The position numbers and the translations under genes are program-made. Shown piece by piece: positions 58,225-58,250 of a stretch of 64,000 nt of DNA (positions are counted from its first letter, which is position 1; each line of letters opens with the position of its first letter). The notes below the pieces were generated by a model. The model was not told the DNA's origin. It worked only from the letters and a program-made list of their open reading frames with translations, and did no database searches. Where the stretch lies: the NCBI RefSeq assembly GCF_003018235.1, contig NZ_CP027439.1; one strand, given 5' to 3'. Origin of the DNA: Escherichia coli (GTDB lineage: Bacteria; Pseudomonadota; Gammaproteobacteria; Enterobacterales; Enterobacteriaceae).

Positions 58225-58250
58225 CCCCCCCTCGTCCGTGACAGGGGGGG
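58225..58250. repeat. C7/G7 inverted repeat hairpin between convergent genes
   Basis: ccccccc-N12-ggggggg read directly from the sequence. Confidence 0.7.

Follow-up and report, generated by a model that had tools for sequence, protein, structure and literature searches.

What does a perfect palindrome built of two homopolymer runs do between the ends of two converging genes? The question is raised by a stretch of 64,000 nucleotides (nt) of Escherichia coli DNA (contig NZ_CP027439.1 of assembly GCF_003018235.1), referred to here as the window, which derives from an IncFII-type Escherichia plasmid. At positions 58225–58250, the window carries a run of seven C, a 12-nt spacer and a run of seven G (the C7/G7 hairpin), located between a gene for a GerE/LuxR-type helix-turn-helix (HTH) regulator on the + strand and the last gene of an adhesin operon on the − strand. 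On balance, the evidence favors, without settling, a hairpin at a 3′ end shared by both transcription units, with a poor U-tract, which would pause RNA polymerase and protect both mRNAs while release is left to Rho or to collision, and in which differences of arm length would be near-neutral.

Position and Structure of the Hairpin

The C7 arm was located at 58225–58231, the loop TCGTCCGTGACA at 58232–58243 and the G7 arm at 58244–58250, as read directly from the sequence, and together they form a perfect 26-bp inverted repeat. The open reading frame (ORF) of the regulator (57652–58203, + strand) ends with TAA at 58201–58203, and the OmpA-like ORF (59076–58276, − strand) ends with TGA at 58278–58276. 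The two converging stop codons are separated by a gap of 72 bp (58204–58275), and the hairpin lies inside this gap, 21 nt past one stop and 25 nt past the other. The gap measures 69–74 bp in 17 other assemblies, the cause being changes in the length of the tracts and of a microsatellite, (AAGC)2, which lies directly 3′ of the hairpin (58258–58265) and is present as (AAGC)3 in the L010 lineage. The 3′ flanks of the hairpin are CTTACTCAAGC on the + strand and ATGTATTCTGC on the − strand, and its tails are CUUACUCAAG (+) and AUGUAUUCUG (−). No T-run flanks the hairpin on either side, the tails lack the U-tract of a classical intrinsic terminator, and a consensus terminator scan calls nothing at the site. 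An earlier description made from the letters and ORFs alone, without database searches (the sequence-only reading), had proposed a perfect 7-bp G:C stem with a 12-nt loop and no T-run between the convergent stops of LuxR-type and OmpA-like genes; its coordinates proved exact, and both gene labels hold (Pfam GerE, 28.3 bits; Pfam OmpA, 81.8 bits).

The 12-nt loop was found to be partly paired in the predicted fold. U58232 pairs with A58243, and GUC at 58234–58236 pairs with GAC at 58240–58242, leaving a CGU triloop, so that the overall stem amounts to 11 bp with an interruption, i.e., seven G:C pairs, one U:A pair and an inner helix of 3 bp. Predicted minimum free energies are −19.9 kcal/mol (+ strand; z-score −3.2) and −20.7 kcal/mol (− strand; z-score −2.8). 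On both strands, the structure is a GC-rich stem-loop shortly past a stop codon, as in a classical intrinsic terminator.

The arrangement C7-N(4–30)-G7 turned up in 0.7% of first-order Markov resamples of the window and never in the 2000 resamples drawn from the AT-rich island; by shuffling, 0.12 C6...G6 sites per window are expected. Since C7/G7 is this rare in resamples, the hairpin is not a chance occurrence. It is present at a single site, with no second copy in the window; it matched no Rfam family at E ≤ 1 and had no exact match among the JGI metagenome contigs. In E. coli, it was found only together with a module of three genes (adhesin, tpgA-like and regulator), which is carried by 2 of 5426 complete genomes, on the plasmids pSCU-111-1 and p100 (strain 317). 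A dispersed repeat, such as the repetitive extragenic palindromes (REP) and bacterial interspersed mosaic elements (BIME), or a known RNA family was rejected, as the hairpin is single-copy in the window, bound to the module in E. coli and without a match in Rfam or JGI.

A Conserved Slot Filled by Unrelated Hairpins

A protein search together with look-ups of contigs recovered related modules. The same gene order, adhesin → tpgA-like ← regulator, is kept where the TpgA-like and regulator proteins are 63–66% identical to those of the window. In these modules, the intergenic gap has no homology to that of the window and harbors a canonical bidirectional terminator, AATAAAGGGGAT-loop-ATCCCCTTTAT (AAAGGGGAT...ATCCCCTTT). 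This terminator, present in the modules L011–L023, occupies the same slot between the tpgA-like and regulator genes and likewise folds on both strands. Both stems are made of G/C runs (G4...C4 in the relatives, C7...G7 in the window), with the order of the runs opposite and the sequences unrelated. The terminator of the relatives comprises an A-tract, a GC stem-loop and a T-tract, whereas the window hairpin is without flanking A/T tracts and has a stem about twice as stable (about −19 kcal/mol, compared with −8 to −13 kcal/mol). The tail scores, calculated with our own implementation of the d'Aubenton-Carafa/TransTermHP formula, were −4.3 to −4.8 on both strands for the terminators of the relatives and −2.5 on both strands for the window hairpin. 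The default tail-score cut-off of TransTermHP is −2.5.

A strong hairpin was also observed directly after the tpgA-like gene in relatives at 48% identity. Because relatives at 63–66% and at 48% carry other hairpins at the same place, it is the slot and not the sequence that is conserved; the position of a hairpin at the end of the operon has been kept and filled by unrelated sequences. This conservation of the slot is the strongest argument for regarding the C7/G7 hairpin as the local 3′-end element. In homologous modules, one terminator hairpin has been exchanged for an unrelated one, which clearly illustrates how terminators can be replaced while their position stays the same.

Variation of Arm Length

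The length of the two arms was compared in 18 independent sequences, i.e., the window and 17 assemblies obtained from exact-protein look-ups. Seven combinations of C-arm and G-arm length were found: 7/7 in seven sequences including the window, 8/8 in two, 7/8 in one, 8/7 in two, 6/6 in four (with a GC→A change at the 3′ edge), 6/5 in one and 10/5 in one. All 18 retain at least five G:C pairs, and the loop is identical throughout. The alleles were mapped onto distances in single-nucleotide polymorphisms (SNPs) over 2.5 kb. The C arm has a fixed length in each lineage: the window clade has 7 C, two sub-clades at a distance of 5–10 SNPs have 8, clade B, which is ∼2% diverged, has 6, and clade C has 10. 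In the G arm, which is 5–8 nt long, four 1-nt differences were seen between sequences only 0–3 SNPs apart; as assemblies were compared, some of these differences could be assembly errors at the G-run within the hairpin. The alleles 6/6, 8/8 and 8/7 were each recovered in two or more independent assemblies. The tracts thus appear far more changeable than the surrounding DNA, as is expected for G:C runs of 7 or more. The sequence-only reading had suggested that the runs may act as slippage tracts, and as far as variation in length is concerned this was borne out.

The first three alleles seen (6/6, 7/7 and 8/8) had pointed to a coupled change of both arms, brought about by selection or by template-switch correction, an idea that was rejected once wider sampling had revealed 7/8, 8/7, 6/5 and 10/5. 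Two sequences of clade A are 8/8, close to the 1.0 expected if the arms are independent, and the G arm varies on its own. Over all alleles, the predicted stability lies between −15 and −28 kcal/mol. The GC→A change beside the shortened G run adds U:A pairs in clade B (−21.1 versus −21.2 kcal/mol on the + strand and −25.5 versus −25.0 kcal/mol on the − strand), and by these predicted energies the substitution compensates for the lost stability. The homopolymer arms constitute a natural allelic series with 5 to 8 possible G:C pairs, which could be used to measure the effect of stem length on termination, pausing or RNA protection in its native setting between convergent genes.

Drift of the arm lengths, including the asymmetric combinations 10/5, 6/5, 7/8 and 8/7, would also be expected of a palindrome without function, fortuitous or mutational in origin (e.g., by template switching or slippage in non-coding DNA) and passively transmitted with the island. 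The restriction of the element to one module lineage, about 2% diverged overall, and its absence from the 63%-identical relatives agree with this explanation. Of the alternatives considered, it is the one that survives best, and it is nevertheless unlikely: the resampling of the island speaks against a fortuitous C7/G7, the palindrome is placed exactly where every relative has a terminator hairpin, the 72-bp gap holds no other candidate 3′ structure for either transcription unit, and the substitution in clade B is predicted to restore the stability that was lost.

A Probable Shared 3′ End of Converging Genes

For the favored reading, in which the C7-N12-G7 palindrome is the common 3′ end of the adhesin operon (−) and the regulator gene (+), we infer the following course for transcription, pausing, Rho or collision, and RNA stability. 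The transcript arriving from either side would fold into a stem-loop of about −20 kcal/mol, which would pause RNA polymerase and set the position of the transcript end. Release could be brought about by Rho on the untranslated antisense read-through RNA or by head-on collision of the converging polymerases. The hairpin would further block 3′-to-5′ exonucleases, giving defined and stable 3′ ends to both mRNAs. With arms prone to slippage and any allele with a strong stem tolerated, the differences in length would be near-neutral and would not act as a switch. In the first 100 nt downstream, C exceeds G on both strands (C/G ratio of 1.5 on the + strand and 2.1 on the − strand), a modest bias in AT-rich DNA that is weakly compatible with rut sites and loading of Rho.

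Two published classes come close to this description. The bidirectional terminators of Ju et al. (2019), taken here as described in Wang et al. (2022), lie between convergent E. coli genes; according to Wang et al., they "do not resemble intrinsic terminators" and are Rho-independent, and in the published model the hairpin makes polymerase pause and so determines where converging polymerases collide head-on (bioRxiv 10.1101/2022.10.23.513370). The window hairpin is also placed between convergent genes, is predicted to form on both strands and has no U-tract; its difference from that class is a stem composed of two homopolymer runs, which is unusual and unstable in length. The protective stem-loop of Rho-dependent transcripts, as defined by Dar and Sorek (2018), is stable and has no U-rich sequence after it. 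The same holds for the window hairpin, which is stable and followed by no uridine-rich stretch. The RNA downstream would be untranslated antisense with C in excess of G, a bias that is modest at ratios of 1.5 and 2.1. On this reading, the element is a further member of a class already described genome-wide in E. coli, the stem-loop without a U-tract at the shared 3′ end of converging genes.

It was also considered that the hairpin might be a functional classical intrinsic terminator, bidirectional in spite of its imperfect U-tail. Its very stable GC stem, suitably spaced from either stop, the − strand tail AUGUAUUCU with five U in 9 nt, tail scores at the border of the TransTermHP default cut-off and the canonical terminators in the same slot of the relatives are all compatible with such a role. 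The first four tail positions, CUUA (+) and AUGU (−), contain no U-run, the consensus scan makes no call here, and the tails of the relatives score −4.3 to −4.8. For hairpin-driven release to be efficient, E. coli RNA polymerase requires a proximal U-tract. As a proper U-tract is missing, the hairpin is probably not an efficient classical intrinsic terminator, and this explanation is unlikely, slightly more so than that of a functionless palindrome.

The sequence-only reading had proposed a bidirectional attenuator. Its bidirectional character is retained here in the sense of a 3′-end or terminator element, in line with the position, the folding on two strands and the terminators of the relatives. 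Transcription attenuation was rejected because nothing co-oriented lies downstream on either strand, and what follows the hairpin in each direction is only the antisense of the converging gene.

Several points weigh against a shared 3′-end element. A homopolymer G:C run is an unusual terminator stem, and the hairpin could be merely tolerated and not selected. On the + strand, the stems of the 10/5 and 6/5 alleles are predicted to be clearly less stable (about −15 kcal/mol), and any constraint on stability is therefore loose. The excess of C over G downstream is modest and lies within AT-rich DNA, and the tail scores come from an implementation of our own. As it stands, the element matters little; it would gain interest as a new slippage-controlled regulator only if allele length changed expression.

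Length Variation as a Possible Switch

Homopolymer contingency loci, in which slipped-strand phase variation occurs at poly-G or poly-C tracts, as in surface-protein genes of Neisseria and Haemophilus, share with the window hairpin G/C runs of 5–10 nt near adhesin genes and lengths that differ among very close relatives. Unlike such loci, the hairpin tract lies outside reading frames and promoter spacers alike, and slippage cannot switch a gene on or off. The suggestion of slippage tracts therefore does not extend to a classical on/off contingency tract, because the runs lie in the 3′ gap past both stops, outside any ORF or promoter, where a slip alters only the length of the stem.

A graded version of this idea is a tunable bidirectional terminator driven by slippage, in which the length of the C and G runs would set the strength of the stem and thereby the amount of read-through; antisense transcription or transcriptional interference between the adhesin operon and the converging regulator gene would change with it, providing a heritable and reversible dial of expression. 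The seven length alleles in 18 sequences, the four 1-nt changes of the G arm between sequences 0–3 SNPs apart and the predicted spread in stability from −15 to −28 kcal/mol could be read in its favor, as could the neighborhood, since an adhesin operon and a likely regulator belong to a class of genes that is often phase-variable. A T-run in the spacer of the putative regulator promoter varies as well, and a repeat-controlled, attenuation-like terminator switch is described for the Pil1 pilus of Streptococcus gallolyticus (PMC3894217). These points are opposed by the placement of the tracts outside ORF and promoter, by equal arms in 13 of the 18 sequences with most alleles folding within a few kcal/mol, and by a C-arm length that is fixed within each lineage, which speaks against rapid switching. 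Part of the 1-nt variation in the G arm could, moreover, be assembly error. A tunable terminator is accordingly improbable. An extension in which an "analogue" mutable terminator and the variable T-run in the putative promoter spacer would jointly act as a graded, population-level dial on adhesin expression is marginally more doubtful still.

The best sigma-70-like match upstream of the regulator gene is CTGTCA-18-TATAAT at 57539–57568, about 85 nt upstream of the ATG, and is a consensus match only. A T7 run (57557–57563) lies within its 18-nt spacer. This run is T7 in the window clade, T8 in L001, L034 and L040, T6 in L010, and T5 with a 14-nt TA-rich insertion in clade B. Because changes in its length would alter the spacing between the −35 and −10 elements of the putative promoter (17, 18 or 19 nt), the T-run would be a better candidate than the hairpin for a slippage switch.

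A role at the level of DNA, either as a protein-binding inverted repeat (e.g., an operator bound by a dimer of the adjacent GerE/LuxR-type protein) or as a site of recombination or of a mobile element, is highly improbable, for although a perfect 26-bp inverted repeat adjoins the gene of an HTH protein, it is downstream of both genes and not at a promoter, is not repeated within the window or at other sites in E. coli, is inside the conserved three-gene module and not at a junction (the plasmid-variable flanks being upstream of the regulator), and has arms whose variable length is hard to square with a fixed spacing of half-sites. A boundary of a mobile element or of the island was rejected, as the hairpin is internal to the module and the variable junctions are located upstream of the regulator.

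Genes and Origin of the Module

The first gene of the adhesin operon (59110–61038, − strand) encodes a YadA-type trimeric autotransporter adhesin, identified by the Pfam domains YadA_head, YadA_stalk and YadA_anchor and by the RefSeq annotation of two matching plasmids. The last gene (58276–59076, − strand) codes for a TpgA-like lipoprotein with BamE-like (Pfam BamE, 52.7 bits) and OmpA_C domains, and a tpgA-like gene follows a trimeric autotransporter adhesin gene in all the relatives examined. TpgA is a peptidoglycan-binding helper in an operon with the adhesin gene ataA (PMC12523085; bioRxiv 10.64898/2026.01.22.700529); it combines a BamE-like domain with OmpA_C and is encoded directly downstream of the trimeric autotransporter adhesin gene (PMC12523085). 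The − strand gene of the window has the same domain architecture and location. In L010 (GCA_047591595.1), the TpgA-like gene contains, at the equivalent of window position ∼58661, a 30-nt in-frame tandem duplication of the unit CAGAATGTGCAGGAG, giving a protein of 276 aa compared with 266. Outside Escherichia, the nearest homologues of this protein that bear a name (about 45–49% identity) are the PlpD/OmpA-family lipoproteins of Pasteurellaceae (Gallibacterium, Pasteurella, Glaesserella and Mannheimia).

The regulator gene (57652–58203, + strand) encodes 183 aa and carries the GerE/LuxR-type HTH at a score above the Pfam cut-off of 23.5 bits. Its N-terminal ∼110 aa have no Pfam match and represent an uncharacterized domain fused to the GerE-type HTH. 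The RefSeq/PGAP annotation covers only the C-terminal 74 aa. Over 179 aa, the full ORF of 183 aa is 66% identical to its converging counterpart in a related module, and the long ORF is therefore real. The tpgA-like, adhesin and full-length regulator genes thus make up a conserved three-gene module in which automatic annotation truncates the regulator to 74 aa. The module (window 57000–61100 and its relatives L011–L030) is AT-rich, its GC content being 30–47% where the plasmid has about 50%. This composition and the homologues in Pasteurellaceae jointly suggest horizontal acquisition from a low-GC source.

Other Homopolymer Runs in the Window

The remark in the sequence-only reading that similar G/C runs recur in the island was only partly correct: the runs exist, as C6 at 59990, G6 at 63130, G9 at 63777 and at least G6 at 63995; none of them forms a second hairpin. 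A common system of the hairpin and the other G runs of the island was rejected, as the G6 run at 63130 and the G9 run at 63777 have expanded, with a shift of frame, in a decayed pseudogene, where the intact allele on p100 has G5 and G7. This pseudogene (window 62058–64000) derives from an S6 peptidase autotransporter (SPATE) gene, the intact counterpart of which on p100 is 4.1 kb long (L002, 11065–15180). Its further lesions comprise T7 versus T8 at 62179, deletions of 56, 192 and 14 nt, and other 1-nt indels, and most of the lesions are also carried by pSCU-111-1. The runs in the SPATE gene show that homopolymer slippage takes place in the island, and they are unrelated to the hairpin. Elsewhere in the window, the two longest C runs are C9 at 46935–46943, about 130 nt past the downstream end of the IncFII repA gene, and C8 at 52570–52577, in the region of a prenyltransferase/DUF554 gene.
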